Of a DNA stretch of 64,000 nt, positions 1,845-52,960 are shown piece by piece. Position 1 is the stretch's first letter. Every line of letters starts with the position of its first letter. The translations under genes and the position numbers were made by a program. Below the pieces are notes generated by a model. It worked only from the letters and a program-made list of their open reading frames with translations. It did no database searches and had not been told where the DNA came from. Source of the DNA: Bacillota bacterium (GTDB lineage: Bacteria; Bacillota; Sulfobacillia; JAJYWN01; JAJZPE01); contig DASXUT010000035.1 of assembly GCA_036504675.1 (NCBI GenBank), forward strand, positions 7,277-71,276. The letters run 5' to 3'.

Positions 1845-2741
1845 TTGCGGAACTTCAGTAAGTGGACGGTAACCATCGTCGCCGTCGTGGCAACGTTGAT
1901 TGTCGCCGGCGTCGGCGGATTTGCCCTGGGCGCCCGTTCAGTCAAACCCGATCTCCAAAGCGTCGCTTCGGTCAACGGGGATTCAATCACGAAGACCCAG
2001 TTGTACAATAAGATGGTGAAGGACTACGGGGCTCAGACCGTCGACGGTCTGATCACCGACTTGTTGCTCGACCAGCAGCTGAAGAAGGCCGGGGCGACGG
2101 TCACCGACGCCGAGATCAGCGCGGAGGTCAAGAAGCTGGAAGATCGCTTTGGCGGCCAGAGTGGGCTGGACCAAGCCCTGCAGTCGAACGGCATGACCCT
2201 GGCCCAACTGAAGGACAACATCCTGTTCCAGCTGAAGGTCCAAAAGATCATCGGTAAGGATGTCCCGACCGACGACGCCGCCCTTCAAAAGTACTTCCAG
2301 GACAATCTGGCCCAGTTCGATAAGCGCGAGCTCCACGCCCGGCACATCCTCGTCGCCACCGAAGCCGAGGCCAAGACGATCAAGGCCCAGTTGGACAAGG
2401 GCGGTGACTTCGCCGCTCTGGCCAAGCAGAAGTCGACCGACGACACCAACAAGAACCAGGGCGGCGACCTGGGCACGTTTGGCCGCAACAAGATGGACCC
2501 CGATTTTGAGAAAGCCGCCTTCGCTCTGAAGGTCAACGAGGTCTCCCAGCCGGTGCAAAGCCAGTACGGTTGGCACATCGTCCAGGTCCTCGAGATCAAG
2601 GGCACAGCCCCGACCTTCGAGGCCAGCAAGAACTATGTCAAGGAGGCCGTCATCGCCCAGGGCGTGAGCGCCCAGTACCAGACCTGGATGGACAGCCTCA
2701 AGGCGACGGCGAAGATCAGCAACAGCCTGGAGAAGAAGTAG
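1845..2741 (+). CDS. prsA: foldase PrsA-like parvulin-type peptidyl-prolyl isomerase (membrane-anchored)
   Basis: TTG start at 1845 with a GGGGAGGA RBS 7 nt upstream. An N-terminal signal/anchor (TVTIVAVVATLIVAGVGG) is followed by a SurA-N-like region and a parvulin PPIase domain (HARHILVATEAEAKTIKAQLDKGGDFAALAKQKSTD...GGDLG...GWHIVQV). Confidence 0.8.
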   Translation: MRNFSKWTVTIVAVVATLIVAGVGGFALGARSVKPDLQSVASVNGDSITKTQLYNKMVKDYGAQTVDGLITDLLLDQQLKKAGATVTDAEISAEVKKLEDRFGGQSGLDQALQSNGMTLAQLKDNILFQLKVQKIIGKDVPTDDAALQKYFQDNLAQFDKRELHARHILVATEAEAKTIKAQLDKGGDFAALAKQKSTDDTNKNQGGDLGTFGRNKMDPDFEKAAFALKVNEVSQPVQSQYGWHIVQVLEIKGTAPTFEASKNYVKEAVIAQGVSAQYQTWMDSLKATAKISNSLEKK

Positions 2742-2760
2742 CTCGATCTGAGGCAAGATT

Positions 2761-2798
2761 GAGGGCCGGGGGCGGGAGCCTCCGGCCCTCTTGGTTCT
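2761..2798 (+). terminator. rho-independent terminator downstream of prsA
   Basis: The stem GAGGGCCGG pairs with CCGGCCCTC around the loop GGGCGGGAGCCT and is followed by TTGGTTCT. Confidence 0.5.
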
Positions 2799-2922
2799 GC
2801 ATCGGCACCGAGTCCTCTTGTGGCCGGGCCGGTCGGCCGGCCCGTGCCGTCGGACAACAAGAGATGGCCGGACGTTGTCCGACCATCTGAAAGGAAAAAG
2901 CTCCCGCTTGGGGCTTGCCTTG

Positions 2923-2994
2923 AGCCGGCGATGGGACTTGAACCCGCAACCTGCTGATTACGATTCAGCTGCTCTACCATTGAGCTACGCCGGC
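2923..2994 (-). tRNA. tRNA-Thr (anticodon CGT)
   Basis: The reverse complement folds as a cloverleaf: acceptor GCCGGCG/CGCCGGC, D-arm GCTC-AATGGTA-GAGC, anticodon stem GCTGA/TCAGC with loop AUCGUAA (anticodon CGU), and T-loop TTCAAGT. There is one C-A mismatch in the T-stem. CCA is not encoded. Confidence 0.8.
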
Positions 2995-3131
2995 ATTGCG
3001 GCTCGTCTGTGAGCCGCGCTGTCGCTGTTTATGATAGCACATTTCGGCCGCTCCGGCAACAGCCTGCAAAACTTAGAGCGGAAAGGCTTTGCGGGCGACT
3101 CTTGCCCGGCGCGGGCCGGGTCTGTTCGTGC

Positions 3132-3641
3132 TCACGGTCGTTGACGCCCCGGGCGTCTCCTCGGGCCAACCTTGGCCGCCGGCTTGGTCGTTCGGGCGGT
3201 TCGGCGAATCTTCTTGCGCTCTCCGGTTCCGCTCGCTTGGACCGTCTCGGCCAACTTGCGCTCACGCCAAGCCATGTGCCGGCGGGCGAGTTCTTCGAGT
3301 TGGGACAGGTAGCGTGGATTCTTGCGCTCGGCACGGAGCTCGGCGATGAATGCCTGGACCTGCATCCAGACGCCGATGTCTTCGCCGACGCTGGCGAAGA
3401 ACAGGTCCTCGTGGAGAGCACCCTGGAGGACGATGGCCGCCGCCATGTCCCAATAGCTGACCACTTGGCGGAAATAGGCGTTGGTGTCGGAACCGGGCGG
3501 GCACTGGGCCTTGAACTCAGCAAGGGTCTTGGCCGAGAATTCGCCCATGAACCACTTGCGGGCCCGGCGCATGACCTCTTCGCGCCTGAGGTCATAGAGC
3601 CTCAAGACCAACTCGGCATCTTGGTAGGTCGGCTTGGGCAA
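3132..3641 (-). CDS. hypothetical protein with basic C-terminal tail
   Basis: TTG start at 3641 with an AGGGGGAA RBS 7 nt upstream. The 169-aa sequence (MPKPTYQDAELVLRLYDLRREEV...) is globular-looking with a Lys/Arg-rich C-terminus. It lies between two tRNA genes. No family recognized. Confidence 0.5.
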   Translation of the reverse strand: MPKPTYQDAELVLRLYDLRREEVMRRARKWFMGEFSAKTLAEFKAQCPPGSDTNAYFRQVVSYWDMAAAIVLQGALHEDLFFASVGEDIGVWMQVQAFIAELRAERKNPRYLSQLEELARRHMAWRERKLAETVQASGTGERKKIRRTARTTKPAAKVGPRRRPGRQRP

Positions 3642-3807
3642 TGGTGATTCCCCCTGTCCGTGTCATTCGCGATCTGACTAAATGTTAGCACAGCTCGTCC
3701 GGGATGGCAAATAAAGGATTCAGAGGACGGCCGAGCTTCGCGTTGGTCTAATGGCCCAGGGGTCTTGAACAAAAACATAGCCGCCCGGTGTTTCACCGGC
3801 CGGCTTG

Positions 3808-3879
3808 AGCGGGAGACGGGATTCGAACCCGCGGCCTTCGGCTTGGGAAGCCAACGTTCTACCACTAAACTACTCCCGC
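3808..3879 (-). tRNA. tRNA-Gly (anticodon CCC)
   Basis: The reverse complement gives acceptor GCGGGAG/CTCCCGC, anticodon stem TTGGC/GCCGA with loop UUCCCAA (anticodon CCC), and T-arm GCGGG-TTCGAAT-CCCGT. CCA is not encoded. Confidence 0.8.
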
Positions 3880-4038
3880 GTTGCAAAGTTCATTATAACC
3901 CAACTCGAAGGCTCATTGCAAGTCAGCGCGGTTCGGCACAAGCGCGGCGCGGACCATGGATCATTGGTCATCGGATCGGCCGGTCTGCCGGGCATGTTGG
4001 CGGCCGAGCGCCGTCGTTGTCGATCCCGATCTTGGTTC

Positions 4039-5184
4039 TCAGTGCGACCTCTCCTTGATCGCCTGGCCGGCCCGGTTCTGGAGGTCGAGTAGGCCGAGGA
4101 GGGGCTGGGCCGGGAACCCGGGGCGGACGGCCGAGAACTGGTAGTTGCGCCGGTCGACGGAGGTCCAACGGTACTTGTAATCTTCGGCTCCGCGGAGGAA
4201 ATCGAAGGCCGGGGAGCCTTCGTCGATGGCCTGCCGGATGGAGTGGGCCAGGACCAGGTTGCCAACCCCGGCCCAGGACCATTTGGGGTCGAAGCCGCCC
4301 GAATAGTAGAACGTGCCGTCGGCAGTACGAAAGCAGTACTGGCTAGCCACGCATCGGTCATCGGCGTAGGCAAGGTAGAGCCGGAGGCGGCCCTCATCCA
4401 GGAAGCGGCGGGCGACGTCGCGGTGGAACCGCCTGACCGAGGGCAGGGCGAAACTCCCCGGCATACCCTTTCCCCACCACCGCTGCTTATGAAGACTGAA
4501 GAAATCGTCCATGGCCTGGTCGACATGGGCACCGGAGTCGACCAGTCTGATTTCGAAGTTGCTCTCGCGCTCGAGGCGCCGCCGGTAATAATCCAGGTGC
4601 TTGCGGGTCTTCTTGCCCAGGTCCTGCTGGAATTCGTCCCAGGTCGACGGGAGTGGCCGATAGGGGCAGACTTCCTGAGGCAGGTAGGCCGACCCCCAGC
4701 CGGCCTCGTCGGCGGCCTGGCGGATGGCGGCAAGGGCCGGTGAGTCGCCGGGACACTCCTCGACGGTCATCAGCTCCCAAGTGGGATGGCTCCCGAGAAA
4801 GGACGTCAAGTCCCGAGCCAAGGCTTCCTCCTCACCTCGGGCGAAGATCAGATCGAGATAGTCACTATTGCCCGCGCCCATCAATCGTAGGCGACGGACC
4901 GGGAGCAGGGGCAGACCGGGCAGCAGCCACTGCCGGAAGAACGGGGCGAGTCCGGCCAACTCCCCACCGGGCCGCCGCAGGGTGATAAGGTACAGGGCCT
5001 TCCCCCGGCGGTGATGGCGCCACCACGTGGCCGCCCATGTCCAGGTTGAGAAGGGGCGATTGGACCGGCTTCCTTCGAGGAGGCTCTCCCATTCGTCACG
5101 GATGGCCGCCAATCCTACCTCTTCGGTCACCGCGCCGATCTCGTATGGCCGGCGTTCAGCGTCAAGCTCACCTGATTGGGTCAC
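4039..5184 (-). CDS. GNAT-family acetyltransferase, CelD/FemAB-like (BioF2-like acetyltransferase domain)
   Basis: In track ORF 4039..5571 the first 128 aa are out-of-frame overlap with dedA, so the real start is taken as GTG at 5184 with a GGAGGAA RBS 9 nt upstream. The C-terminal 380 aa carry CelD-like GNAT motifs (...FDPKWSWAGVGNLVLAHSIRQAIDEG...FDFLRGAEDYKYRW). Confidence 0.55.
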   Translation of the reverse strand: MTQSGELDAERRPYEIGAVTEEVGLAAIRDEWESLLEGSRSNRPFSTWTWAATWWRHHRRGKALYLITLRRPGGELAGLAPFFRQWLLPGLPLLPVRRLRLMGAGNSDYLDLIFARGEEEALARDLTSFLGSHPTWELMTVEECPGDSPALAAIRQAADEAGWGSAYLPQEVCPYRPLPSTWDEFQQDLGKKTRKHLDYYRRRLERESNFEIRLVDSGAHVDQAMDDFFSLHKQRWWGKGMPGSFALPSVRRFHRDVARRFLDEGRLRLYLAYADDRCVASQYCFRTADGTFYYSGGFDPKWSWAGVGNLVLAHSIRQAIDEGSPAFDFLRGAEDYKYRWTSVDRRNYQFSAVRPGFPAQPLLGLLDLQNRAGQAIKERSH

Positions 5185-22558: not shown

Positions 22559-25500
22559 TCATTGCCCGGCCGCCACCGATGGTCTCTTGGCTTGCTTTCC
22601 CTCATACATCCGCTCATCGGCGCGGGCCACCAGTTCGGCCGGCCGGGCTCCATCGTCCGGGAAGATGGCCACGCCGACCGTCACCCCGGGGAGCCTGAAT
22701 TCTCGTTCCTGCAGGCTGATGGAACGGTCGGCGACGGTCGCCGCCAGGCGCTCGGCGGCCTGCCTGGCCTCGTTGGCGCCGGTCCTGGGGAGGATGACGG
22801 CAAACTCGTCCCCTCCATACCTGGCAACGGTGTCGGTCGCGCGAAAGCTCTCATCGAGTGCCCTGGCCAGCGCCACCAGGGCCTTGTCGCCTGCGAGGTG
22901 GCCGTAGACGTCGTTGATCAGCTTGAGGCTGTCGACGTCGATGAGGATTATCGCCAGAGGGGCCATGTCTTTGGCCGATCGTGAGATTTCCTCCTCCAGG
23001 CGTCGGTAGAAGTAGGAGTGGTTGTACGTTCCGGTGAGGCCGTCGTGGATGGCGGCGTGGGCTACCTGTTCGTGGTAGCGGGCCACCTCGATGGCGATGG
23101 AAATCTGCCCGGCCACCGCGCTGACCAGGTAAAGGTCTTCTCGGGAAAAGGCGTTCAGCGGCTCCGATTCAATGTCGAGGACACCGATGGTCCGCCCTTC
23201 GGCGACTAGCGGCACGGCCAGTTCGGAGAGCATCCGGCGGGCCGGGCTCGGGTAATAGCGGGGATCTGAGCGGACGTCGCCGACCACCTGGGGCAGGCCA
23301 TGCTGGGCGACCCATCCGGTGAGCCCCTGCCCCTTGAGGATGTGGGGCCGCTCCGGCCCGGTCGGCAGCCCGACCGAGGCCTTGGCGACCAGGTCTCCGG
23401 TTTCCTCGTCGACCAAGAAGAGGGTATACAGGTTGGGCCCCATCGCGTCGTAGAGGATGCTGAGGATGCGGTGCATCAGATGGGACGGGTTCAGGAGGGA
23501 CCTGGTCTCGAGGGAAATCTGGTAGAGAATCCCCAGTTCCTTCCCGTGGACCGGGAGGATCCGCCCGATGGTCGTCTCGGGCTTGGGTGGGCCAGCCTCC
23601 AGCGGGCCCCTGCCCCCGGGTCGCTCAAGGACGGCATAGGCCGGATCGCGCTCCTCTTGTAGACGTCTCAAGTGGGTCACGAGGTGATCCACTACCGTCG
23701 GGTCGAATTGGGTCCCCCGGCCGGCCTGAAGCCTGGTGATGGCCTCTTCCGGGCGGAGTCCCAGGCGGTACGGCCGGTCAGTGGTCATCGCGTCGAAGGA
23801 GTCGGCGACGGCAAGAATGCGCGAACCAAGCGGGATGGCCTCCCCGGAGATTCCGTCCGGGTACCCCCCACCGGCCCACCATTCATGGTGATGCTTGACC
23901 AGCGGGACGATCTCTCGAAACTGGGCCACTTGCTGCAGGATGTTGGCCCCCTTGACCGGATGTTCCATCACTTGCGCCCGTTCGAGGGGATCCAACGCGC
24001 CCTTCTTCTTGAGGACGGTATCCTCGAGCCCGATCTTCCCGATGTCGTGGAGGACGCCGGCGTATTCGATGGTCGGCAGGGTCTCCGCCGGCAGGTTCAT
24101 CTCCCTGGCGATCATCAGGGCGTAATGGGAGACGCGGGACGAATGGGCTCGGGTGCGGTGGTCCCGGGCGTCGACCGCCTCAGCCAGGGTCTTGATGGCC
24201 GCCATGTAGAGGTCACGTTCGCGCTTGAAGACGGTCGCGTTATGGATGGCAATGGCCAGCTGTCTTGAGAGGGTACCGATGGCGTCGACCTCGTCCTCGA
24301 TGAAGGCCCCCGGGGTCCTGGACTCAAGGTCCAGGACGCCGAGGACGTCGTCGCCGACCTTGAGAGGAAGGCACATGCGGGCCCTGGAGGCCAGGCCGGC
24401 CACCGAGGCTTGGACCGGGTCCTGACCGACATCATTGGCCACCAGGGGCTGTCCATTGCGGGCCACCCACCCGGCCATTCCTACATTGACGCTCTGGGTG
24501 AAGCCGTCCGGGACGTCCTTGGCCATCGTCCCGGCCTGGGCATAGAGTCTGAGTTCCTCACTTTCCCGGTCATGCAGGAAGACGGCGGAATAGTCGTGGC
24601 CCAGGTCCTTGGTGAGGAAGACGACGACCTCATTGAGCAAGGTCGGCAGGTCGAGAATGGCGGTGAGGTGATGGCTGGCGCGGCCGATGGCCGTCAACTC
24701 GCTGACCTTTCGTTCCAGCCGGCGGGTCAGCCGGCTCTCCTGGATGGCCGAGGCCAACTGTCCGGCGAGGCCTTTGACCAGCTGCTCGTGTTTCTCGCTG
24801 AATTCCGCCGGCCCGGAGTAGCCGATCAGCAGGGCGCCCAGCTGGTCTTCCCCGCTGCGCATGAGCCCGACGATGGCGCTTCTGACCCGGAACTGCCCCT
24901 GGAAGCAACGAGACAAGCCGGTAAGCTTGGCGGCGTCCTCGATGAAGACGACTTCGTCGGTCCCCGCCGAGCCGGCCAGGGTGGCGAAGTCTGCCGCGAT
25001 CTCGGAGAGGGGTTCCACCCCGGTCACCTCGACCTCACCGCCGGTGCGGGTGGCCCGCATGATTGTCCTTGGCGTCCGGTGGCCGGGCTCGTGGACACAG
25101 ACGGCCATGCCGTCGTATCCCAAGACCTTGACCATACAGTTGGCGGCGGCTGAGAAGATGGACCGGAGGTCGTCCCGTCTGGCCACCCTCTGGGCGACTT
25201 CAAGAAGGGCCGTCAAGACGTCGGCCTCTTCTCGGAGCTTCGTGTAGAAGCGAACGTTTTCGATCATCCCTGAGACCTGTCCGGCCATTCTTTCGGCGAA
25301 GTCCTGCTCAGCCGGGGTGAAGGGCTGCCTGTGATTCCGCGAAAGGCTGAGTGATCCGAGGAGCCTCCCGCGAAACCCCAGGGGGACGGTGAGGCTGAAG
25401 CAAGCGTCGGCCCCCCAGAGGGCCGCGGCCAATCCCTCATCGGCCGCGGTTTCCGGGGGCGGAACGCTCCGGAGGGTGACGTTCCAGGGCTGGGGCCCGG

Positions 25501-27088
25501 GCCCTTCCGGGCGCGCGCCGGCCAGCTCCAAACCGCCGGTAGCGGTCTCAAGGGCGAGGCACAAGTGATCGAGGGGGACCACCGTACTCAGCTCCGTAGC
25601 CAGCTGGGGTACGAATTCCCCGGGGGTGGTCGAGGTCGCGGCGGCGTGAAGGGTGCGGTTAAGAGCGGCGTTCTGTTCCGCCCGGGCACAGGCTTGTCGG
25701 CGTAGGGTCGCATTGTTGACGGCGACGGCCAGGTGGTCCACGATGGGGGTCAGGAAGCTGATGGTCGTTTCGTCGAAGGCGTTTGGCTTGGCGCTTCCCA
25801 GGTTGAAAGTGCCGAGGCAGGTGTCGCCGAAGATGAGGGGAAGGCAGAGAACGCACCTGAGGTCCGTCTCGAGGAGGGCGCGGTCCCCCACGAACTCATC
25901 GGGATTCGCTTGGAGATCCCGGGAAAGGACCGGGGCCTTGACTTCGACGGCTCGCCCAGTTCTGGTCCCTTCCAGAGAGCCGCCTCCGCGATCGGAGTGG
26001 GCCTGGTCGAGGCGGCCGATGAGGGCCAGCGGCTGGAACGTCTTCCCTTCTTGGTCAACGGTGGCCACGGAAAGCTGGTCGAAAGGGACGTGCTTCCCGA
26101 TGGCCTTTCCCAAGGAACTAAGGACGCTATTGAGGTCGAGGCTGGAACTCAGGGCCAGCGCAGCTTCGCTGGCCGCCCGCAGACGGGCCTGCGCCTCCCG
26201 CTCCCAGGAGATGTCTCGGAGGGCGACCAGCCGGCCGGTGACTTCGCCGGCCCGCGCGTGCAGTGGGGTTGTGAAGACGCTGAGGGTCGCCCCGGCCGGC
26301 CTGACCAGTTCGACCTCTTCCTTCACCGTCCGGCCTGCCTTGGTGTATGCTCCGGTCAGGAGTCTTTCGACTTGGTGCGGATCGGCAGCCCGGCTTCTGA
26401 GAACTTCAAGGATGGGGCCAGGGGCCCTTTGCCCGATCAGTCCCTCGGGGTCGAGCCCGAGGAGGTCGGCGACTCGCTTGTTGGCAATCTGAATGATGTG
26501 CCGGGGGTCGGTCATGATGATTCCGGCATCGGACGATTCCAGAAGGGCTTCCAGCTTCTCGCCCCAGTCCCTGGCGTGGTCGTAGACGGTGACCTGGTCG
26601 ATGACCTGGGCCGCTTCGTCCGCGAAGGCCCTGAGCTCGGGCAGCATTTCCGCGGCAAACGTCCCCGTATGGTCGCTGGCCAGGTCGATGACTCCCAAGA
26701 CGTGGCCGTCCTTGACCAACGGGAGGCAAGCCTGAGACCGCAACCCAGCGGCCACGGATGGGGCTGAGAAGGGGTTCTTGGCGGCGTCATTGGCCATTCG
26801 GAGTCTTCCGTCGGCGACGGCCTGCGCGGCGAGTCGGCTCACCGGGGCCGCCACCCTCCGGACGTGCTTCCGGGCATTGCCGGAAGACCTGCCTGCCGTC
26901 AGGGCCAGGCATTCCTGGCCATGACCGGTAAGGTGGAGGGTCGCCCGCTCGACCGGGAAGGCGGCAAGCATGTCCTCCAGCAGCCGCCCGAGAACTTCGT
27001 CCAGGCCTATTGGGCCGGACCGGCGGCGGGTGGAGGGCTTGGCGCCCGGCTTTTCCGGCCGTGAAAGTCCTGGTTTCGTCCTTGGCAT
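22559..27088 (-). CDS. multidomain c-di-GMP signalling protein: multiple GAF + PAS + HD-GYP phosphodiesterase + GGDEF diguanylate cyclase
   Basis: About 1,509 aa with at least five GAF-like segments and a PAS domain. The HD-GYP domain carries HDIGK...HHEWWAGGGYPDG. The C-terminal GGDEF domain carries GLTGTYNHSYF...RYGGDEFAVILP. Start chosen at ATG 27088 with a GGGAGAAAG RBS; track start 27262 and ATG 27118 are alternatives. Confidence 0.85.
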   Translation of the reverse strand: MPRTKPGLSRPEKPGAKPSTRRRSGPIGLDEVLGRLLEDMLAAFPVERATLHLTGHGQECLALTAGRSSGNARKHVRRVAAPVSRLAAQAVADGRLRMANDAAKNPFSAPSVAAGLRSQACLPLVKDGHVLGVIDLASDHTGTFAAEMLPELRAFADEAAQVIDQVTVYDHARDWGEKLEALLESSDAGIIMTDPRHIIQIANKRVADLLGLDPEGLIGQRAPGPILEVLRSRAADPHQVERLLTGAYTKAGRTVKEEVELVRPAGATLSVFTTPLHARAGEVTGRLVALRDISWEREAQARLRAASEAALALSSSLDLNSVLSSLGKAIGKHVPFDQLSVATVDQEGKTFQPLALIGRLDQAHSDRGGGSLEGTRTGRAVEVKAPVLSRDLQANPDEFVGDRALLETDLRCVLCLPLIFGDTCLGTFNLGSAKPNAFDETTISFLTPIVDHLAVAVNNATLRRQACARAEQNAALNRTLHAAATSTTPGEFVPQLATELSTVVPLDHLCLALETATGGLELAGARPEGPGPQPWNVTLRSVPPPETAADEGLAAALWGADACFSLTVPLGFRGRLLGSLSLSRNHRQPFTPAEQDFAERMAGQVSGMIENVRFYTKLREEADVLTALLEVAQRVARRDDLRSIFSAAANCMVKVLGYDGMAVCVHEPGHRTPRTIMRATRTGGEVEVTGVEPLSEIAADFATLAGSAGTDEVVFIEDAAKLTGLSRCFQGQFRVRSAIVGLMRSGEDQLGALLIGYSGPAEFSEKHEQLVKGLAGQLASAIQESRLTRRLERKVSELTAIGRASHHLTAILDLPTLLNEVVVFLTKDLGHDYSAVFLHDRESEELRLYAQAGTMAKDVPDGFTQSVNVGMAGWVARNGQPLVANDVGQDPVQASVAGLASRARMCLPLKVGDDVLGVLDLESRTPGAFIEDEVDAIGTLSRQLAIAIHNATVFKRERDLYMAAIKTLAEAVDARDHRTRAHSSRVSHYALMIAREMNLPAETLPTIEYAGVLHDIGKIGLEDTVLKKKGALDPLERAQVMEHPVKGANILQQVAQFREIVPLVKHHHEWWAGGGYPDGISGEAIPLGSRILAVADSFDAMTTDRPYRLGLRPEEAITRLQAGRGTQFDPTVVDHLVTHLRRLQEERDPAYAVLERPGGRGPLEAGPPKPETTIGRILPVHGKELGILYQISLETRSLLNPSHLMHRILSILYDAMGPNLYTLFLVDEETGDLVAKASVGLPTGPERPHILKGQGLTGWVAQHGLPQVVGDVRSDPRYYPSPARRMLSELAVPLVAEGRTIGVLDIESEPLNAFSREDLYLVSAVAGQISIAIEVARYHEQVAHAAIHDGLTGTYNHSYFYRRLEEEISRSAKDMAPLAIILIDVDSLKLINDVYGHLAGDKALVALARALDESFRATDTVARYGGDEFAVILPRTGANEARQAAERLAATVADRSISLQEREFRLPGVTVGVAIFPDDGARPAELVARADERMYEGKQAKRPSVAAGQ

Positions 27089-27372
27089 TGCTTTCTCCCT
27101 GCCCGAAAATTGAGTCATCCTTGGCTTAGAGAATATCGGCGTTTCGGCTGTTTCTATTGAGCCGACTGAACGCGGCGCCGGGGTGGGACGGGGCGTCGTG
27201 GTTCGTCGAGCAGCCGTCAACCGCCCTCTGGTTAGCCCGGGTCCAGCGGCCCGCGGTAGCATAAAGCCCCGCCGCGATTGGGCGGGGCCGAGCCATCAAG
27301 AGATTGGAGTCCGCCGCTGGGTCAGCCGGCGGGCTGAAGGTACCGCAAGCCTCCTTCGCCAAAAGGCCGTTC

Positions 27373-40057: not shown

Positions 40058-40960
40058 CTACGTGGTAAGCACCCGAGAGCGCACCCCTGGGGTCGTGCCG
40101 GATGTGCCTCGAGTCAGGACCATGTCGAGGATCCTCTCGAGGTCCTCCCGGCTATAGTAGTCGATCTCGATTCTCCCCCGCGCCTTTCCTCTTAACTGCT
40201 TGACCCTAACCTGGGTCCCAAAGGCTCGTTGAAGGTTCTCCTCGACCTCGACCATCATCGGCTCACGATGGCGAGTGCTGGCCTTCGGTTTATTCTCCTT
40301 GTCGGCAGCCAGCTTCTTCGCCAGCTCCTCGGCTTGGCGGACCGATAGCTCCTTGGCCACAATCGCCTTCGCCAGGCGGAGGCGCAGATCATCCAGCTCA
40401 AGTGAGAGGATCGCCCGAGCATGTCCGGCGGAGAGTGTTCCACGTGAAACATCGTCCTTCAACTCCGCCGGAAGGCTCAGAAGCCGCAGTGAGTTGGCCA
40501 CCGCCGGCCGGCTCCGGCCTACCTTGTGGGCCACGTCCTCCTGAGTCAACGAGAACTCATCCATCAGTCGACGAAAAGCCTCCGCTTCTTCGAGCGGATT
40601 CAGGTCCTCGCGCTGCAGGTTCTCGACGAGGGCGATCTCCATGCTTTCCGCCTCGCCGAATTCGCTCACCACAACTGGAATCTCCCGCATCCCGGCCAGT
40701 TGCGCCGCCCGCCAACGCCGCTCCCCCGCCACCAGCTCGTACCCGTCGTTGACGGGCCTAACGAGAATCGGTTGCACGACACCGTGTTCCTTGATGGATT
40801 CCGAGAGCTCACGGAGCTTCTCTTGGTCCATCACCCGCCGCGGTTGGTATCGATTGGGCTTTATCCTGTCAATTTGAAGCCGAGACGCCTCCGAAGGGCC
40901 CTCGTCGCCCCCCGGCAACAGCGCCTCAAGCCCCCTGCCTAGCCCTCGTTGCTTGGGCAT
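40058..40960 (-). CDS. parB: chromosome partitioning protein ParB/Spo0J
   Basis: The ParB box GERRWRAAQLAG and the HTH are present. In track ORF 40058..41041 the first 27 aa are junk overlapping parA, so the start MPKQRGLGRGLEALL at about 40960 is preferred. Confidence 0.85.
   Translation of the reverse strand: MPKQRGLGRGLEALLPGGDEGPSEASRLQIDRIKPNRYQPRRVMDQEKLRELSESIKEHGVVQPILVRPVNDGYELVAGERRWRAAQLAGMREIPVVVSEFGEAESMEIALVENLQREDLNPLEEAEAFRRLMDEFSLTQEDVAHKVGRSRPAVANSLRLLSLPAELKDDVSRGTLSAGHARAILSLELDDLRLRLAKAIVAKELSVRQAEELAKKLAADKENKPKASTRHREPMMVEVEENLQRAFGTQVRVKQLRGKARGRIEIDYYSREDLERILDMVLTRGTSGTTPGVRSRVLTT
40436..40451 (+). other. parS centromere-like site inside the parB/spo0J coding region
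   Basis: Exact 16-bp palindrome TGTTCCACGTGAAACA, matching the Bacillus parS consensus tGTTNCACGTGAAACa. Confidence 0.6.
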
Positions 40961-41714
40961 GCATCGCAACCTCCTTGGCGAGCTCGGTGTAGACCTCTGC
41001 GCCCTTGGATTTGGGGTCGTAGGTGATGATCGGCTTCCCATACCCGGGAGCCTCGCTCAGTCGGATGTTCCGCGGGATGATTGTCTGATAGACTTTCTCC
41101 CGAAAGAATCGCTTGACTTCCTCCGCCACCTGGTTGGAGAGGTTCGTCCGCGCATCGTACATCGTCAGTACCACCCCTTCAAGCTGTAGCCCCGCGTTCA
41201 GCTGATTTTGGATGAGGTGGATCGTGTTCATCAACTGGGTCAGCCCCTCCAGCGCATAGTACTCACACTGGATGGGGACCAGTACCGAGTCAGCTGCGGT
41301 TAGTGCATTAACGGTCAGCAGTCCAAGGGAAGGCGGGCAGTCGATGAGGACGAACTCGTAGTCGTCGCGCACATCGGCCAGCGCCTTCTTCAGCTTGGTC
41401 TCCCGGGACAGGGCCGGCACCAGTTCGACCTCTGCACCCGCCAGGTCAATGGTCGACGGCACCAGGTCCAGCCCGCCCACCACGGTCTTCACGACGACCT
41501 CGCGCATCGGGACATCGTCAATCAGCACCTGGTAGATACATTGGGTAATCTTCTTCTTGTCGACTCCCAGACCGCTCGTGGTATTCCCCTGCGGATCGCT
41601 GTCGATGAGCAGCACCCGGTGACCCAGTGCTCCTAAGGCCGCCCCAAGATTGACCGCGGTCGTGGTCTTCCCCACTCCGCCTTTCTGGTTGGCGATGGCG
41701 ATAACTCTGCTCAT
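40926..41714 (-). CDS. parA: ParA/Soj chromosome partitioning ATPase
   Basis: Deviant Walker A IAIANQKGGVGKTTTAVNLGAAL. In track ORF 40926..42092 the first 126 aa are wrong-frame junk. ATG at 41714 (MSRVIAIANQKGG) has a GGGGTGA RBS. Confidence 0.9.
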   Translation of the reverse strand: MSRVIAIANQKGGVGKTTTAVNLGAALGALGHRVLLIDSDPQGNTTSGLGVDKKKITQCIYQVLIDDVPMREVVVKTVVGGLDLVPSTIDLAGAEVELVPALSRETKLKKALADVRDDYEFVLIDCPPSLGLLTVNALTAADSVLVPIQCEYYALEGLTQLMNTIHLIQNQLNAGLQLEGVVLTMYDARTNLSNQVAEEVKRFFREKVYQTIIPRNIRLSEAPGYGKPIITYDPKSKGAEVYTELAKEVAMHAQATRARQGA

Positions 41715-41937
41715 CCAATCACCCCATCCATTCCTTGAACCCCCGTCGACGACCCCTTGCTGTCTGTCCAGAACTTCGTCACTGAAAAACCCAGTTCCTT
41801 CTCTTCTTACCAGATATGCGCCCAACCGCTTCCCCCGCCCTTGACGCGGCCCGCCCATCCTACGGTCTCCCCCCGGGCCGCCAAAGACCAGCCGGCACTG
41901 GACTCGGTTCCGCCTTCCTCGAACCTGGCACATGCAG

Positions 41938-41969
41938 TCAAACAAAAAAGCGGTGCACGGCGCACCGCT
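41938..41969 (-). terminator. rho-independent terminator downstream of the ParM-like gene
   Basis: The minus strand reads AGCGGTGC-GCCGT-GCACCGCT followed by TTTTTTGTTT. The stem is 8 bp, perfect. Confidence 0.6.
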
Positions 41970-41997
41970 AGTTCGACCTTCGCACGGTAGGCGACCC

Positions 41998-43044
41998 TTA
42001 ATCCAGGAATCCGCCACCGTTCTCGCTCTTGAAGACCCGCCGGGCCAACTTGTGGAATCCTCTAGCGTTGGCCATTTGGGCGTTCTCGACAATCATCGCG
42101 TTGGGAAATTCTGTCATCAGATACTGCCCCAGAGGCTGCCCGCCCCCGCCGGTGATCAGAATCCGGTCGAGATCGCGATAGTCCCACAGGGAATCGACCA
42201 CCGTGATGAGCTTTGCAGCCACCCACTCGAGGGTTTCCTTCTTGAACTCGCTGAGGTCGTAACCCTTTCCGGCAATCCTGATCTCGCCCCGCTCGACGAT
42301 TTCGTCCATCTCCCAGTTCTCTTTGTCAATGGCGAAGATCTCCCGGAGCTTGCCGGCAATGATCCCATAGGCGCTGGCCAGGCCAGTGGTAGTCGACGTG
42401 CTCAGCCGGTCGATGAACTCCATCCCGTCGGCCACGGCGAAATCGGCTGTCTTGAACCCGATGTCGATGATCCCCACCTTGGCCCGGCTGAGGTCCTGGT
42501 CAACAACGCGCCCGGTGTCATCGAGGGTCTGATCGTACAACGTCCCAAACGGCTGCGGAACCACCTTGACCTTGTCCACGTCCAGGACCAGATCGCGATC
42601 GCCATTGCCCTCATGCACCGTCAGCTCGTGCGCCCCCCGCAGGGCCTCCGCCAGCCCGTCCCGGTAACTCGCGTAGTAGTTGGTCGGGAGGCCGGTGACG
42701 ACGTTGAACGATTGCTGCGGTTCCGAGGCGAAGACGCTCAACCCGGCAAGGAGCAACACCTTGACATTCTTGTCCTGAACGCGATTCGGATCCAGGGAGC
42801 GGGCGGCGATCTCACTCTGGCGAACGGCCAGCCTCCCCACGAAGTACCGTCGTCCACCAACGCTGACCATCAGGTTGTCCACCAATCGGCTTCGGTCGGT
42901 GAACTCAGACTGGTACGATAGCGGCTGGCCAAGCCCCACTACGCTTGGGAAGAGGCATTCCTTCTCCCCATCGGTGACCTTGACAAACCCGTACCCGAGG
43001 TCGATCCCGAGACCCTTCTTGCTCAAAGAACGCTCCACCTCCAT
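41998..43044 (-). CDS. ParM/StbA-family actin-like ATPase (stand-alone, chromosomal)
   Basis: Actin-fold motifs GIDLGYGFVKV (phosphate-1), RYFVGRLA, VGIIDIGFKTADFAV (phosphate-2), and ILITGGGG (adenosine) are present. 349 aa from ATG 43044 with a GGAAGGAA RBS. The track start at 43101 lies inside the upstream terminator U-tract and is rejected. Confidence 0.75.
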   Translation of the reverse strand: MEVERSLSKKGLGIDLGYGFVKVTDGEKECLFPSVVGLGQPLSYQSEFTDRSRLVDNLMVSVGGRRYFVGRLAVRQSEIAARSLDPNRVQDKNVKVLLLAGLSVFASEPQQSFNVVTGLPTNYYASYRDGLAEALRGAHELTVHEGNGDRDLVLDVDKVKVVPQPFGTLYDQTLDDTGRVVDQDLSRAKVGIIDIGFKTADFAVADGMEFIDRLSTSTTTGLASAYGIIAGKLREIFAIDKENWEMDEIVERGEIRIAGKGYDLSEFKKETLEWVAAKLITVVDSLWDYRDLDRILITGGGGQPLGQYLMTEFPNAMIVENAQMANARGFHKLARRVFKSENGGGFLD

Positions 43045-43097
43045 GTGGTTTCCATTCCTTCCCGATCCGTGGTCAGGAATCGGAGCCTGCTTCAAAG

Positions 43098-43268
43098 ACA
43101 TAAAAACCCGCCTTTCTGGATGCCGAAAAGGCGGGTCTACCCCAATACCAACCCTCCTTCGGTAGCCCGGCCGTCCTAGCTCTCGCCTTAGACCCGTGGC
43201 TTTGCGTCCCTGCCTTTCGACAGGTTTGCCTTTATCGGGACGGATCTATATCCTTTTGCTGTGCCCTT
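43098..43268 (-). promoter_or_regulatory. class-I c-di-GMP riboswitch (GEMM motif) with terminator/antiterminator expression platform
   Basis: The minus-strand RNA reads GGGCACAG...AGGCAAACCUGUCGAAAGGCAGGGACGCAAAGCCACGGGUCUAAGGC. This matches the Vc2-type consensus GGGCAAACCnnnnGAAAnnnnGGGACGCAAAGCCnCCGGnCUAA, with a compensatory P2 stem (CCUGUC/GGCAGG) around a GAAA tetraloop. Downstream, UAGACCCGCCUUU can pair either with the aptamer segment CGGGUCUA or in the terminator CCCGCCUUU-loop-AAAGGCGGG followed by UUUUUA (43100-43135). Confidence 0.7.
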
Positions 43269-43277
43269 CCTAATTCA

Positions 43278-43306
43278 CCATAATTCGCCAAACTCCTGCT
43301 TGTCAA
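43278..43306 (-). promoter_or_regulatory. sigma-A promoter driving the riboswitch leader (TTGACA-17-TTATGG)
   Basis: On the minus strand TTGACA (43301-43306) is followed by a 17-nt spacer and TTATGG (43278-43283). It sits immediately after the TAA stop of the noc-like gene. Confidence 0.45.
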
Positions 43307-43316
43307 GAAGAATTTT

Positions 43317-44180
43317 TTACTTCCGGAGCTTCCCCGACGCCGACCCGGCCTGCTCCCTCGGGATGCGCACGGTCACCTCGATGAACTCCCCCCGGTCGGC
43401 TTCGCTCATCTGCGCCCTGACCCCCGCATCACGCAGGGTCTTTACCGCCTGGCGGAAGGTGTTCAGGAAAATGCGGACATCCTTGAATACCCTCAGCACC
43501 CTTTGACCCTTCCCTCCCGCGGTCTCTATTTCGCGGGAAATTTGCTCGAGGGTCTCCGCCACCAACTCCTCCGTCCGCCGAACTGAGAGGCCCTCCTGGG
43601 CGATGCGCTGGGCTATCTTCCCGGCCAGTCTGCCATCTTCCAGGCGGAGCAGGGCCCGGGCGTGGGTCTCGCTTAGCCGGCCCCCCCGGACCATCTCCTG
43701 CACGGGCGGGTCGAGCTTCAACAGCCTTAGCTTGTTGGCAATGGCCGGTTGGCTGCGACCAAGCCGTTGGCCCAACTCCTCTTGGGTCAGCCCGTGTTCC
43801 TCGATGAGCCGCTTATACCCGACCGCCTCTTCCAGGCAGTTCAGGTCCTCGCGCTGAAGGTTCTCGACCAGACTCAGGATGGCCTGGTCGATCCCACCCA
43901 TACTACGAACGATGACCGGCACTCGCTCGAGTCCGGCCATCTTAGCTGCCCTAAGGCGCCTTTCCCCGGCGACGAGCTCGTAGCCTCCGTCAGACAACTG
44001 CCTGACCACCAGGGGCTGAAGGACGCCATGCTCTCGCAGGGAGGCCGACAGCTCAGACAGCTTCGCCGGGTCAAACTGCTTCCGCGGTTGGTACGGGTTT
44101 ATCTTGATTCGGTCCAAAGCAACGTCGATTACCACGGTGCCGCCTTCCGGCCTGGCTCTTGCGGCCTCGTCCCCTGGCAT
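43317..44180 (-). CDS. ParB-family protein in the Noc (nucleoid occlusion) position
   Basis: ParB box GERRLRAAKMAG, an HTH, and 287 aa. It sits directly after rsmG as noc does in Bacillus. ATG at 44180 with an AGGGAGGG RBS about 9 nt upstream is preferred over GTG at 44189. Confidence 0.8.
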   Translation of the reverse strand: MPGDEAARARPEGGTVVIDVALDRIKINPYQPRKQFDPAKLSELSASLREHGVLQPLVVRQLSDGGYELVAGERRLRAAKMAGLERVPVIVRSMGGIDQAILSLVENLQREDLNCLEEAVGYKRLIEEHGLTQEELGQRLGRSQPAIANKLRLLKLDPPVQEMVRGGRLSETHARALLRLEDGRLAGKIAQRIAQEGLSVRRTEELVAETLEQISREIETAGGKGQRVLRVFKDVRIFLNTFRQAVKTLRDAGVRAQMSEADRGEFIEVTVRIPREQAGSASGKLRK

Positions 44181-51093: not shown

Positions 51094-51323
51094 TTATACA
51101 CAACCTGTGGATATCGTTGTGGATACCTTGTTGATTCCGCCTTCAGCCGCCTCTCCGGGCTGAAGGTTTTTTCCCCACCGCGCTCCGCCCGATCGGTTGG
51201 CTGGTGACGACCAGAAGCCTGCCATGACGTCGCTTGCGTCCGGCGAAGGCTCCCGGCTCGCAGCCCGCTGGCCGAAGACAAGTGCCCGCCACCCTAGCTC
51301 CTGTGGATAATCATGTGGACAAG
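51094..51323 (+). promoter_or_regulatory. oriC DnaA-box cluster upstream of dnaA (incA/B-like)
   Basis: The cluster holds TTATaCACA, TGTGGATAt and TGTGGATAc at 51094-51126. A perfect TGTGGATAA (51302-51310) and TGTGGAcAA (51315-51323) lie just before the dnaA RBS. Confidence 0.6.
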
Positions 51324-51347
51324 TCTCCCTTTGGAGGGCTCCCGGAC

Positions 51348-52709
51348 ATGAAAGATCAACTCATCGAAATCTGGGACAAGGCACTGGCGGCGATGGAGCG
51401 TGACCTCCCGCGAGCCGGCTACGAAACCTGGCTGAAGGGTACTCATCCTCTGGCCCTCCACGACGACACGATGGTCATCGGCGTTCCCAACGATTTTGCC
51501 CGGGAATGGTTGGAGACCAAGTACTCCTCGCTGATCAAGCGCACCCTCAAGGGGATCGTCGGCTACGACATGGCCATTCGCTTCGTCCACGAGTCCGGGC
51601 CGGCCGCCTCCGCCGCGGACGAGGTGGCCTCAACCTGGGCCACCCCTCAGTCGGCCGTGCCGACCATTAACGGCGAATCGATTGGGCAACCGCTCAATCC
51701 CAGGTACACCTTCGACCGTTTCGTCGTCGGCAACTCCAATCGCTTCGCCCACGCCGCCTCACAGGCCGTGGCCGGCGCGCCGGCCCGGGCTTACAACCCG
51801 CTGTTCATCTACGGCGGGGTCGGTCTCGGAAAGACCCACCTGATGCAGGCAGCGGGGCACTACATCCGGACCCAGGGGAACGGGATGCGGGTCGTCTACA
51901 TCTCTTCCGAAACCTTCACCAACGAACTGATCTCGTCCATCCGGGACCGGACCCAACACGAATTCCGGAACCGCTACCGGACAATCGACGTCCTCCTGGT
52001 CGACGACATCCAGTTTCTGGCCGGCAAAGAAGCCACCCAAGAGGAATTCTTCCACACCTTCAACTCGCTCCACGAAGCCAACCGCCAGATCGTCATCTCC
52101 AGCGACCGTCCGCCAAAGGAGATCACCGCCCTCGAAGAGCGGCTACGCTCGCGATTCGAGTGGGGGCTCATCGCTGACATCCAGCCACCAGACCTCGAGA
52201 CCAGGGTGGCCATCCTTCGCAAGAAGGCCGAAATTGAGCGCCTAGAGATTCCCAATGACGTCATGCTCTTCATCGCCTCGAAGATCGATACCAACATCCG
52301 CGAACTCGAGGGGGCCCTGATTCGAATCATCGCCTATGCCTCGTTGATAAGCCATGACGTGACCATCGACGTGGCCGCCGAAGCCCTCAAAGACATCCTC
52401 CCGCAGCGCCGTCCCAAGACCCTCTCGATCGAACTCATCCAGCAACGCGTGGCGGCCTTCTACGGGTTGCGGGTCGACGACCTCAAAGCCCAGCGGCGCA
52501 CTAGGGCCTTGGCTTTTCCCAGGCAGATTGCCATGTACATCTCCCGTGAGCTGACCGACTCTTCGCTTCCAAGGATCGGCGAGGAGTTCGGCGGACGCGA
52601 TCACACCACGGTCATTCATGCCTACGAAAAGGTGGCCGCGGATATGAAGGTCGACGCCTCTTTGCGCTCGGTCGTCCAAGAATTGATGGAGAAGCTCCGC
52701 AACGGTTAG
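51348..52709 (+). CDS. dnaA: chromosomal replication initiator DnaA
   Basis: AAA+ Walker A GGVGLGKTHL, the sensor, and the domain-IV HTH are present. The track start at 51234 adds 38 aa of junk spanning DnaA boxes. ATG at 51348 (MKDQLIEIWDKAL) has a GGAGGG RBS. Confidence 0.95.
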   Translation: MKDQLIEIWDKALAAMERDLPRAGYETWLKGTHPLALHDDTMVIGVPNDFAREWLETKYSSLIKRTLKGIVGYDMAIRFVHESGPAASAADEVASTWATPQSAVPTINGESIGQPLNPRYTFDRFVVGNSNRFAHAASQAVAGAPARAYNPLFIYGGVGLGKTHLMQAAGHYIRTQGNGMRVVYISSETFTNELISSIRDRTQHEFRNRYRTIDVLLVDDIQFLAGKEATQEEFFHTFNSLHEANRQIVISSDRPPKEITALEERLRSRFEWGLIADIQPPDLETRVAILRKKAEIERLEIPNDVMLFIASKIDTNIRELEGALIRIIAYASLISHDVTIDVAAEALKDILPQRRPKTLSIELIQQRVAAFYGLRVDDLKAQRRTRALAFPRQIAMYISRELTDSSLPRIGEEFGGRDHTTVIHAYEKVAADMKVDASLRSVVQELMEKLRNG

Positions 52710-52723
52710 TCCGGCCTGGAGCC

Positions 52724-52960
52724 TGTGGACGACCTCTGGACAACCTGTTGAACGACCTGTGGATAGAATGGGTTGAACCCTAATCTGTGGACAAGACCGT
52801 GGATAGTGGGGACAACCTGCGCAAGATGACCACAGCTTGTCAACAGACCAGCGGCACAAATGGCCTGCGACTCAATGACTTATCCCCATATCCACATCCC
52901 CTGTTACTAAAGCCTCTAGGTTTCTATAAAGATTCGAGGCATAAGAGTTTTACACAAAGG
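52724..52960 (+). promoter_or_regulatory. oriC DnaA-box cluster and AT-rich DNA-unwinding element between dnaA and dnaN (incC-like)
   Basis: Boxes TGTGGACgA, TGTGGATAg, TGTGGAcAA, cGTGGATAg, TTATCCcCA and aTATCCACA lie at 52724-52896. They are followed by a locally AT-rich 60 bp (ctgttactaaagcctctaggtttctataaagattcgaggcataagagttttacac) in a roughly 68% GC genome. Confidence 0.6.

Follow-up and report, generated by a model that had tools for sequence, protein, structure and literature searches.

Organization of the noc-soj interval

We analyzed a 64,000-nucleotide (nt) stretch of contig DASXUT010000035.1 (hereafter the window; coordinates are window positions unless another locus is named), in which a predicted riboswitch for cyclic dimeric guanosine monophosphate (c-di-GMP) lies directly upstream of a gene for a chromosomal ParM-type actin-like ATPase. 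Profile scans reveal the following order on the minus strand: noc, a promoter-like site, the riboswitch leader, the ParM-like gene, soj (ParA/Soj) and spo0J (ParB/Spo0J). An earlier unaided reading of this DNA (the original prediction) had placed a class-I c-di-GMP riboswitch, complete with its own promoter and intrinsic terminator, before a ParM-like gene in the noc/soj/spo0J locus. This proposal is supported overall: matches to ALP_N/MreB-like_C, TIGR04285, ParA/Soj and ParB/Spo0J confirm the position of the ParM-like gene between noc and soj-spo0J, and the aptamer, promoter and terminator described for the minus-strand leader are all in place. The elements of the interval are:

43319-43317, minus strand: stop codon (TAA) of the Noc-like gene (TIGR04285, 302.8 bits, just below the cut-off of 315)
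43277..43306, minus strand: sigma-A-type promoter-like site (-35 TTGACA at 43306-43301, 18-nt spacer, -10 TATGGT at 43282-43277)
43157..43239, minus strand: c-di-GMP-I (GEMM-I, type 1) aptamer (Rfam, 78.2 bits, full-length model)
43151..43162, minus strand: switching strand CCGAAGGAGGGU, containing the 3' strand of helix P1; alternative partner 43136-43123 (ACCCGCCUUUUCGG), giving an antiterminator
43100..43136, minus strand: intrinsic terminator (stem ACCCGCCUUU/AAAGGCGGGU, 43136-43127 with 43115-43106; 11-nt loop; U run 43106-43102)
43031..43079, minus strand: conserved block of the 5' untranslated region (UTR), about 50 nt, between terminator and start codon
41998..43044, minus strand: chromosomal ParM-type actin-like ATPase gene, 348 amino acids (aa) as called
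41939..41969, minus strand: intrinsic terminator of the ParM-like gene (9-bp stem, then TTTTTTGTTTG), 29 nt past the stop codon

For comparison we used a homologue scan of one genome per GTDB species, which returned 80 loci with 34-87% identity (given L numbers; L081 is the window's own contig), and a metagenome scan with a single protein, which added one further locus only (L084). The promoter-like site matches the consensus at 10 of 12 positions (TTGACA-18-TATGGT; 0.2 sites expected by chance in the promoter scan), its -35 hexamer starts 10 nt past the noc stop codon, and transcription would start near 43270. A promoter directly after noc had been predicted and is present, but the 17-nt spacing to TTATGG that was given for it is not the scan's best parse. 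Alignment of the leaders shows that the -10 region is kept in the three closest relatives (L001, L002 and L084) and the -35 box is not, so read-through from noc may also supply the leader; there is no terminator between noc and the leader. In the Syntrophomonadaceae, clear TTGACA-17-TG-N-TATATT promoters occupy the same relative position of comparable cassettes.

The aptamer

An Rfam covariance-model scan (cmscan) of the whole window returned a single riboswitch match, at 43239-43157 on the minus strand, with 78.2 bits (gathering score 59; E=7e-17). The match covers the full model and takes in the GEMM-I core AGGCAAACCUGUCGAAAGGCAGGGACGCAAAGCCACGGGUCUAAGGC quoted in the original prediction, which lies at 43231-43185. 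Its parts are as follows:

43239 and 43237-43236 with 43161-43160 and 43157, minus strand: P1
43224-43209, minus strand: P2 hairpin CCUGUC-GAAA-GGCAGG, with the GAAA tetraloop at 43218-43215
43201-43191 with 43174-43164, minus strand: P3
43191-43187 (CUAAG) and 43179-43175 (CUAGG), minus strand: tetraloop-receptor-like strands
43230, 43203 and 43162, minus strand: ligand-contact positions G20, A47 and C92 (Vc2 numbering)

P1, P2 and P3, on whose integrity the original prediction had staked the identification, are unbroken in the covariance-model alignment, with zero non-canonical pairs in the structure line. They meet in a three-helix junction; P2 carries a GNRA tetraloop and P3 its receptor, the arrangement of type 1 aptamers. 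A covariance model built from five aptamers was used to align 18 matches, and scoring of the 17 distinct sequences among them showed 90.3% of cells paired and both-sided changes in 9 pairs. None of 500 column shuffles reached the observed covariation, and sliding the 3' partners by 1-3 columns as a control lowered pairing to 24-44%. The claim of covariation in the GAAA-capped P2 stands once homologues are aligned, with three covarying pairs in the stem below the loop, but it is not visible in one sequence. Four relatives have an almost unchanged aptamer within a leader that otherwise diverges. Judged from its conserved bases and predicted helices, the element is a canonical c-di-GMP-I aptamer, and its GAAA tetraloop and CUAAG/CUAGG receptor assign it to type 1.

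Ligand class and the Rfam label

The original prediction had proposed a search with RF01051 as a check. A member of the same clan (CL00126) does score far above its gathering threshold (78.2 versus 59), but the top label is RF03167 (c-di-GMP-I-GGC) and not RF01051. A second CL00126 member, presumably RF01051, also exceeds its own gathering score and is hidden by clan competition. The RF03167 consensus reads GGGACGC-G-AAgCc and cU-G-Cc, and that of RF01051 GACGC-A-AAgC (ACGCAAAgC) and cU-g-CC, such that the sole well-conserved difference between them is the base after ACGC (A47 in Vc2 numbering). We take the name GGC to refer to positions 20, 47 and 92, which is our own reading of the two consensus lines. 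At the separating position the window reads ACGCAAAGCC, with A at 43203 in place of the G of the GGC variant; the only other conserved RF03167 column that it mismatches is the one before C92 (A, not G, at 43163). Position 20 is G (43230) and not the A of the c-AMP-GMP riboswitches (GEMM-Ib). G20, A47 and C92 have been named as likely important for the interaction with c-di-GMP (PMC11218506), and G20A is the change that gives binding of cyclic GMP-AMP (cGAMP; PMC7288161).

The five aligned homologues all read CGCAAAGC and have G20, A47 and C92 in common. Among the aptamers that precede homologous genes, 13 are labelled RF01051 (57-82 bits; RF01051 gathering score 35) and five high-GC ones are labelled RF03167, namely those of the window, L001, L002, L084 and L066, and all five of the latter carry A47. 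The RF03167 label therefore tracks GC-rich seed similarity or lineage and not the diagnostic base. With Vc2 and the RF01051 family the window element shares the core AAAGGCAAACC...GAAA...GGGACGCAAAGCC...CUAAG...GGCUACCGAAG, the tetraloop-receptor pair and the three ligand-contact bases; its higher score on the GGC-variant model comes through lineage-specific sequence similarity, and it differs from Vc2, which acts on translation, in having a terminator. Given its canonical G20, A47 and C92, the aptamer is to be read as an ordinary c-di-GMP sensor despite the RF03167 label, and it would be expected to bind c-di-GMP. There is a lesson for annotation in this: Rfam clan competition labels high-GC canonical A47 aptamers as the GGC variant, and automated annotation could wrongly imply a ligand other than c-di-GMP.

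Expression platform and direction of the switch

The original prediction had also pointed to a strong intrinsic terminator ahead of the ParM-like start. Such a terminator is present; its stem pairs perfectly over 10 bp (inverted repeat I14, 100% complementary; predicted -20.6 kcal/mol) and its end lies 57 nt before ATG 43044. A simple terminator scan had skipped it solely because its loop is longer than 8 nt. It is kept in L001, L002 and L084, with one G-U change. Aptamer (end 43157) and terminator (start 43136) do not overlap, and both are present in the minimum-free-energy fold. The switching strand CCGAAGGAGGGU is a near-copy of the terminator 3' arm AAAGGCGGGU and can pair with the 5' arm ACCCGCCUUUUCGG; the antiterminator so formed is the best structure when the RNA is folded only as far as the terminator loop (-15.2 kcal/mol in the window, -13.9 in L001 and -15.8 in L002). 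This strand is invariant in four close relatives, and both antiterminator strands are conserved in all four; since the metagenome scan gave a single extra locus, the comparison of expression platforms rests on four sequences. The predicted platform consists, then, of the terminator at 43136-43102 and an alternative helix that includes the P1 3' strand. Two other pairings were set aside. In the window, 8 bp of complementarity would allow the P3 5' strand (CGGGUCUA) to form an antiterminator with the terminator arm (UAGACCCG), but neither L001 nor L002 retains this pairing. RNAalifold, run on four leaders, suggested that the 5' leader (GGCACAGC) pairs with the linker; this helix is mostly G-U in the window and broken in L001.

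Landgraf et al. describe two contrasting designs: in the OFF switch Cd1, the aptamer fold is compatible with the terminator and the two compete with an antiterminator, whereas in the ON switch pilM the aptamer and terminator folds are mutually exclusive (PMC9262584). The window element and Cd1, which precedes the flgB flagellar operon of Clostridioides difficile, are both GEMM-I aptamers with G20, A47 and C92, both come from Bacillota, and in both a separate terminator lies downstream, able to coexist with the folded aptamer, and the antiterminator draws on the 3' strand of the aptamer (PMC9262584). They differ in that the target in the window is a single ParM-type actin gene and not a flagellar operon, and in that the direction of the window switch is deduced from its layout. 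The pilM riboswitch of Geobacter metallireducens (GEMM-Ib) likewise has the GEMM-I fold and acts on transcription (PMC9262584). It senses cGAMP, however, and follows the opposite logic (ON). This riboswitch carries A at position 20, and PilM, which heads a pilus operon, is an actin-fold protein of a different actin subfamily, that of the type IV pilus assembly proteins. A further design is seen in 7 of 11 Syntrophomonadaceae cassettes, in which an outer extension of P1 by 6-9 bp is followed directly by 6-8 U in 9 nt; in these the ligand-stabilized P1 would itself be the terminator stem.

The coexistence of aptamer and terminator, the sharing of the P1 3' strand with the antiterminator, the Cd1-like layout and the P1-U-run design in Syntrophomonadaceae all point to an OFF switch, in which high c-di-GMP would terminate transcription. 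Together, we consider it likely that the window holds, at about 43306 to 41940 on the minus strand, a self-contained cassette in which a riboswitch controls a ParR-less chromosomal ParM-type actin gene and, like Cd1, switches its transcription OFF. At low c-di-GMP, the P1 3' strand and linker (CCGAAGGAGGGU) would pair with the terminator 5' arm to form the antiterminator, RNA polymerase would read through, and the actin-like protein would be made. At high c-di-GMP, the ligand would lock P1 and leave the terminator arm free, the 10-bp hairpin and U run would form, and transcription would stop about 57 nt before the ParM-like gene. The product, a predicted filament-forming ATPase, would be made mainly at low c-di-GMP.

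Downstream of the terminator, the 5'-UTR block at 43079-43031 is almost invariant in four relatives despite a variable surrounding leader. It contains two ACCAC motifs and a hairpin of CCAC (43048-45) and GUGG (43038-35) over GGAGGUGG (43042-35). As the called start codon, ATG 43044-43042, overlaps GGAGGUGG, the latter could be a Shine-Dalgarno sequence only with a start at TTG 43026. This block and its hairpin may constitute a second, translational layer of control. In addition, the 5' flank of P1 (UCCGUCCCGAU, 43244-43234) is complementary at 10 of 11 positions to AUCGGGAAGGA (43066-43056), about 170 nt downstream (inverted repeat I19), and an equivalent 9-bp pairing of this flank with a downstream segment occurs in L001 and L002.

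The ParM-like gene and its product

The protein encoded behind the riboswitch matches the Pfam domains ALP_N (125 bits) and MreB-like_C (49.5 bits). It scores 115.6 bits on the NCBIfam ParM equivalog, for which the cut-off is 417, and it belongs accordingly to the superfamily and not to the equivalog. An AlphaFold2 model (predicted local distance difference test score 88, predicted template-modelling score 0.88) was compared with the PDB using Foldseek, and the best matches are all ParMs, with template-modelling (TM) scores of 0.71-0.83. At the top stands Dh-cParM1 (8x1i; TM 0.83, 25% identity), next come pCBH ParM, pSK41 ParM, Ta0583 and Alp7A, and MreB and MamK rank lower. The closest named relative in sequence is Nt-cParM2 of Natranaerobius thermophilus (WP_012448769.1; 47% identity, 96% coverage). 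The phosphate and adenosine motifs of the actin fold are invariant in 24 homologues (D15, D194, G196, T199, D201, G299-301), and the product may be predicted to form filaments. With regard to the start codon, ATG 43044 is the call of the Joint Genome Institute (JGI), but the corresponding codon is AGG in L001 and L002, and the true start may for this reason be the in-frame TTG at 43026, which is conserved, lies at a reasonable distance from GGAGGUGG and gives an N-terminus as long as in the homologues.

Of the components of a plasmid-type ParMRC system, only the ParM-type actin-fold ATPase is present. No adjacent ParR gene was found: the terminator lies 29 nt past the stop codon, and the 286-nt gap before soj is without a credible open reading frame (ORF). 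A conserved small neighbor gene was likewise not found across the homologous loci. Nor is there an iteron-like family of parC centromere repeats in 41600-43400, where the upstream region is taken up by the riboswitch. The gene does qualify as a chromosomal ParM (cParM) by its noc-soj position together with its likeness to Nt-cParM2 and Dh-cParM1. Chromosome-encoded ParMs were biochemically characterized in 2025, with their cellular role openly stated as unknown, and Ali et al. singled out Nt-cParM2 as a cassette without ParR (PMC12270681). The window gene and Nt-cParM2 are both chromosomal and without an adjacent ParR, but the Nt-cParM2 locus is without a riboswitch. Dh-cParM1 is also chromosomal and of the ParM fold, but it has a ParR. 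The window gene differs from the cParMs of Ali et al. 2025 in sitting inside a ParABS/Noc locus. The terminator that follows it insulates the cassette from soj. Riboswitch control of soj-spo0J was considered and is unlikely, as this terminator closes the ParM-like gene before soj.

Recurrence of the riboswitch-ParM pairing

About 650 kb around the 80 homologues was searched for the aptamer, with a covariance-model E<1e-12 taken as a strong match. The aptamer is found in 16 of the 80 homologous loci, which with the window makes 17 strong matches, and once more in the metagenome relative L084. Every match is on the strand of the gene and directly upstream of it, except that in L066 it is upstream of the operon; no strong match occurred in this DNA away from the gene or operon. 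In a neighbor-joining tree of the proteins, the aptamer-bearing genes fall into three separate clades:

Clade 1: the window with L001, L002 and L003
Clade 2: Syntrophomonadaceae, 12 genes
Clade 3: L066

Outside the window, the synteny noc-aptamer-gene-soj-spo0J is confined to L001 and L002 (83-87% identity). In 13 other genomes the riboswitch-ParM cassette has unrelated neighborhoods and its own sigma-A promoter. The Syntrophomonadaceae neighbors, inspected by eye without a family scan, look like unrelated metabolic genes, and no broadly conserved neighbor gene was found across the 80 loci. Since the cassette recurs mostly outside the noc-soj context, the conserved unit is one of promoter, riboswitch, ParM-like gene and terminator, and the comparison of loci indicates that only one small lineage has it inserted in the partition locus. 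The emphasis of the original prediction on the partitioning locus is correct as regards position but overstated, given the unrelated neighborhoods in 13 other genomes and the cassette's own terminator.

In L066, a high-GC metagenome-assembled genome (MAG) labelled Mycobacterium leprae, probably through a binning error, the aptamer is followed at 1887-5105 by an apparent operon of an M23 peptidase, the ParM-like gene and a bactofilin. A bactofilin-like family is present in 12 loci in all, and in L069 too it is directly downstream of the ParM-like gene. Other arrangements were noted in the course of the comparison. Three tandem ParM-like paralogues are encoded in L008 (100-3570, a Symbiobacterium thermophilum MAG) and two in L072. 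In L050 (5013-6317) and its relatives, which form an aptamer-less clade, the ParM-like gene is followed directly by two conserved ORFs of about 149 and 280 aa. These have no Pfam match and could possibly code for partner proteins of the ParM-like product; in such loci ftsX and an M23 peptidase gene are upstream of the ParM-like gene, on the opposite strand. Rfam matches also identified a tandem glycine riboswitch in L069 (7256-7477) and a group II intron domain in L048 (1505-1638).

Alternative readings

Several observations weigh against a Cd1-type OFF switch that governs this gene. The predicted antiterminator contains one A-G mismatch and a 2-nt bulge, and the case for it is one of conservation among four close sequences, with no compensatory changes. 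Thermodynamics favor the terminator over the antiterminator by a wide margin, so that switching would have to be kinetic, and Bc1, a c-di-GMP-I riboswitch whose terminator is strong, seemed to be locked OFF in vivo at any c-di-GMP level (PMC11218506). The conserved UTR block 3' of the terminator hints at an additional layer of control. Further, 64 of the 80 homologous loci, that of Nt-cParM2 included, are without the aptamer, which implies that c-di-GMP control is not intrinsic to the protein family.

The direction of the switch being a deduction, and c-di-GMP-I switches of both the ON and OFF kind being known (PMC11218506), one might suppose that c-di-GMP binding promotes read-through or translation and that the actin-like protein is a product of the high-c-di-GMP state; the hairpin over the Shine-Dalgarno sequence in the conserved downstream block would fit this, and the I19 complementarity (43244-43234 with 43066-43056) makes long-range rearrangements conceivable. 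We regard such an ON switch as unlikely, for the aptamer and terminator fold together without overlap, the P1 3' strand is shared with the alternative helix in the manner of an OFF switch (PMC9262584), and the U run right after P1 in the Syntrophomonadaceae can only terminate with P1 formed. It could also be that the aptamer is a relic or locked, and that the hairpin is a constitutive terminator or attenuator, for example one that ends noc transcripts, with no physiological effect of c-di-GMP downstream. The want of a terminator between noc and the leader, the loss of the -35 box in relatives and the behavior of Bc1 in vivo (PMC11218506) are all compatible with this, but the near-invariance of the aptamer in a diverging leader, its intact ligand-contact bases and the retention of the aptamer-gene pairing, with covariation, in three clades make it quite unlikely. 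Besides, a gene permanently shut off by a strong terminator would decay and would not keep its ATPase motifs invariant.

That the aptamer senses some other ligand, as a member of the RF03167 GGC variant class or as a cGAMP-type GEMM-Ib sensor, appears very unlikely to us. RF03167 is indeed the top Rfam model for the window, L001, L002, L084 and L066, but this label follows high G+C and lineage and not the diagnostic base, and homologous aptamers before the same gene score 57-82 bits on RF01051. The column that separates the two models (ACGC-G-AA versus ACGC-A-AA) is A in the window and in all aligned homologues, and the G at position 20 sets the element apart from the cGAMP sensors, whose ligand is bound by the G20A mutant (PMC7288161).

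Surroundings of the cassette and the replication origin

The riboswitch-ParM locus is 5-15 kb from a region with dnaA, dnaN, gyrB, jag, yidC and two DnaA-box clusters. The nearness to oriC that had been predicted is borne out by this region. Also encoded in the window is a large signaling protein. The features concerned are:

51234-52706: dnaA, about 8 kb from the ParM-like gene, with dnaN, gyrB, jag and yidC in the same region
51094-51322 and 52766-52888: clusters of DnaA-box-like sites (TTATCCACA, at most 1 mismatch), on either side of dnaA
22562-27262, minus strand: multidomain signaling protein of 1567 aa with PAS, about six GAF stretches, HD_5 (HD-GYP-type) and a C-terminal GGDEF domain with an intact motif

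As judged from their positions and matches, the DnaA-box clusters that flank dnaA are a bipartite oriC of the Bacillus type. The protein at 22562-27262, encoded about 16 kb from the riboswitch, may both make and hydrolyze c-di-GMP, and its GAF, PAS, HD_5 and GGDEF domains in the same window indicate an organism with c-di-GMP metabolism and signaling. A perfect parS consensus (TGTTCCACGTGAAACA) is found within spo0J (40436-40451), and a palindrome resembling the Noc-binding site (ATTTCGCGGGAAAT, one mismatch) within noc (43528-43541). The Rfam scan identified two tRNAs in the window, at 2923-2994 and 3808-3879 on the minus strand.

Implications for chromosomal ParMs

In the searchable literature we found nothing that connects c-di-GMP riboswitches with actin-like, ParM or StbA genes, in keeping with the remark in the original prediction that the target class is unusual for these riboswitches, and the study of chromosomal ParMs by Ali et al. 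2025 makes no mention of riboswitches or c-di-GMP (PMC12270681). The riboswitch is of a known kind, and its target class is previously unremarked. The sequence evidence supports control of an actin-like gene and not a partitioning role for the ParM-like gene. Its position among noc, soj and spo0J is suggestive but lineage-specific, and shows no link to chromosome segregation on present evidence; any role of the gene in chromosome biology would be an extrapolation from gene context. A bolder conjecture, which we hold to be rather unlikely, is that c-di-GMP, via the OFF riboswitch, sets the level of a ParR-less actin-like filament that acts beside Noc/ParABS near the origin. Were this true, c-di-GMP would directly tune how this Bacillota lineage organizes or segregates its chromosome or chooses its division site, the cParM2-type family would have a function linked to life at low c-di-GMP (the planktonic or motile state), and the L066 operon would point to a c-di-GMP-controlled module for cytoskeletal and cell-wall remodelling.

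A riboswitch is direct genetic evidence for what a gene responds to, and the presence of a canonical c-di-GMP sensor before cParM2-type actins in three clades places these actins in the c-di-GMP regulon. It provides a first regulatory clue to the role of chromosomal ParMs, with the prediction that they would be made when c-di-GMP is low.

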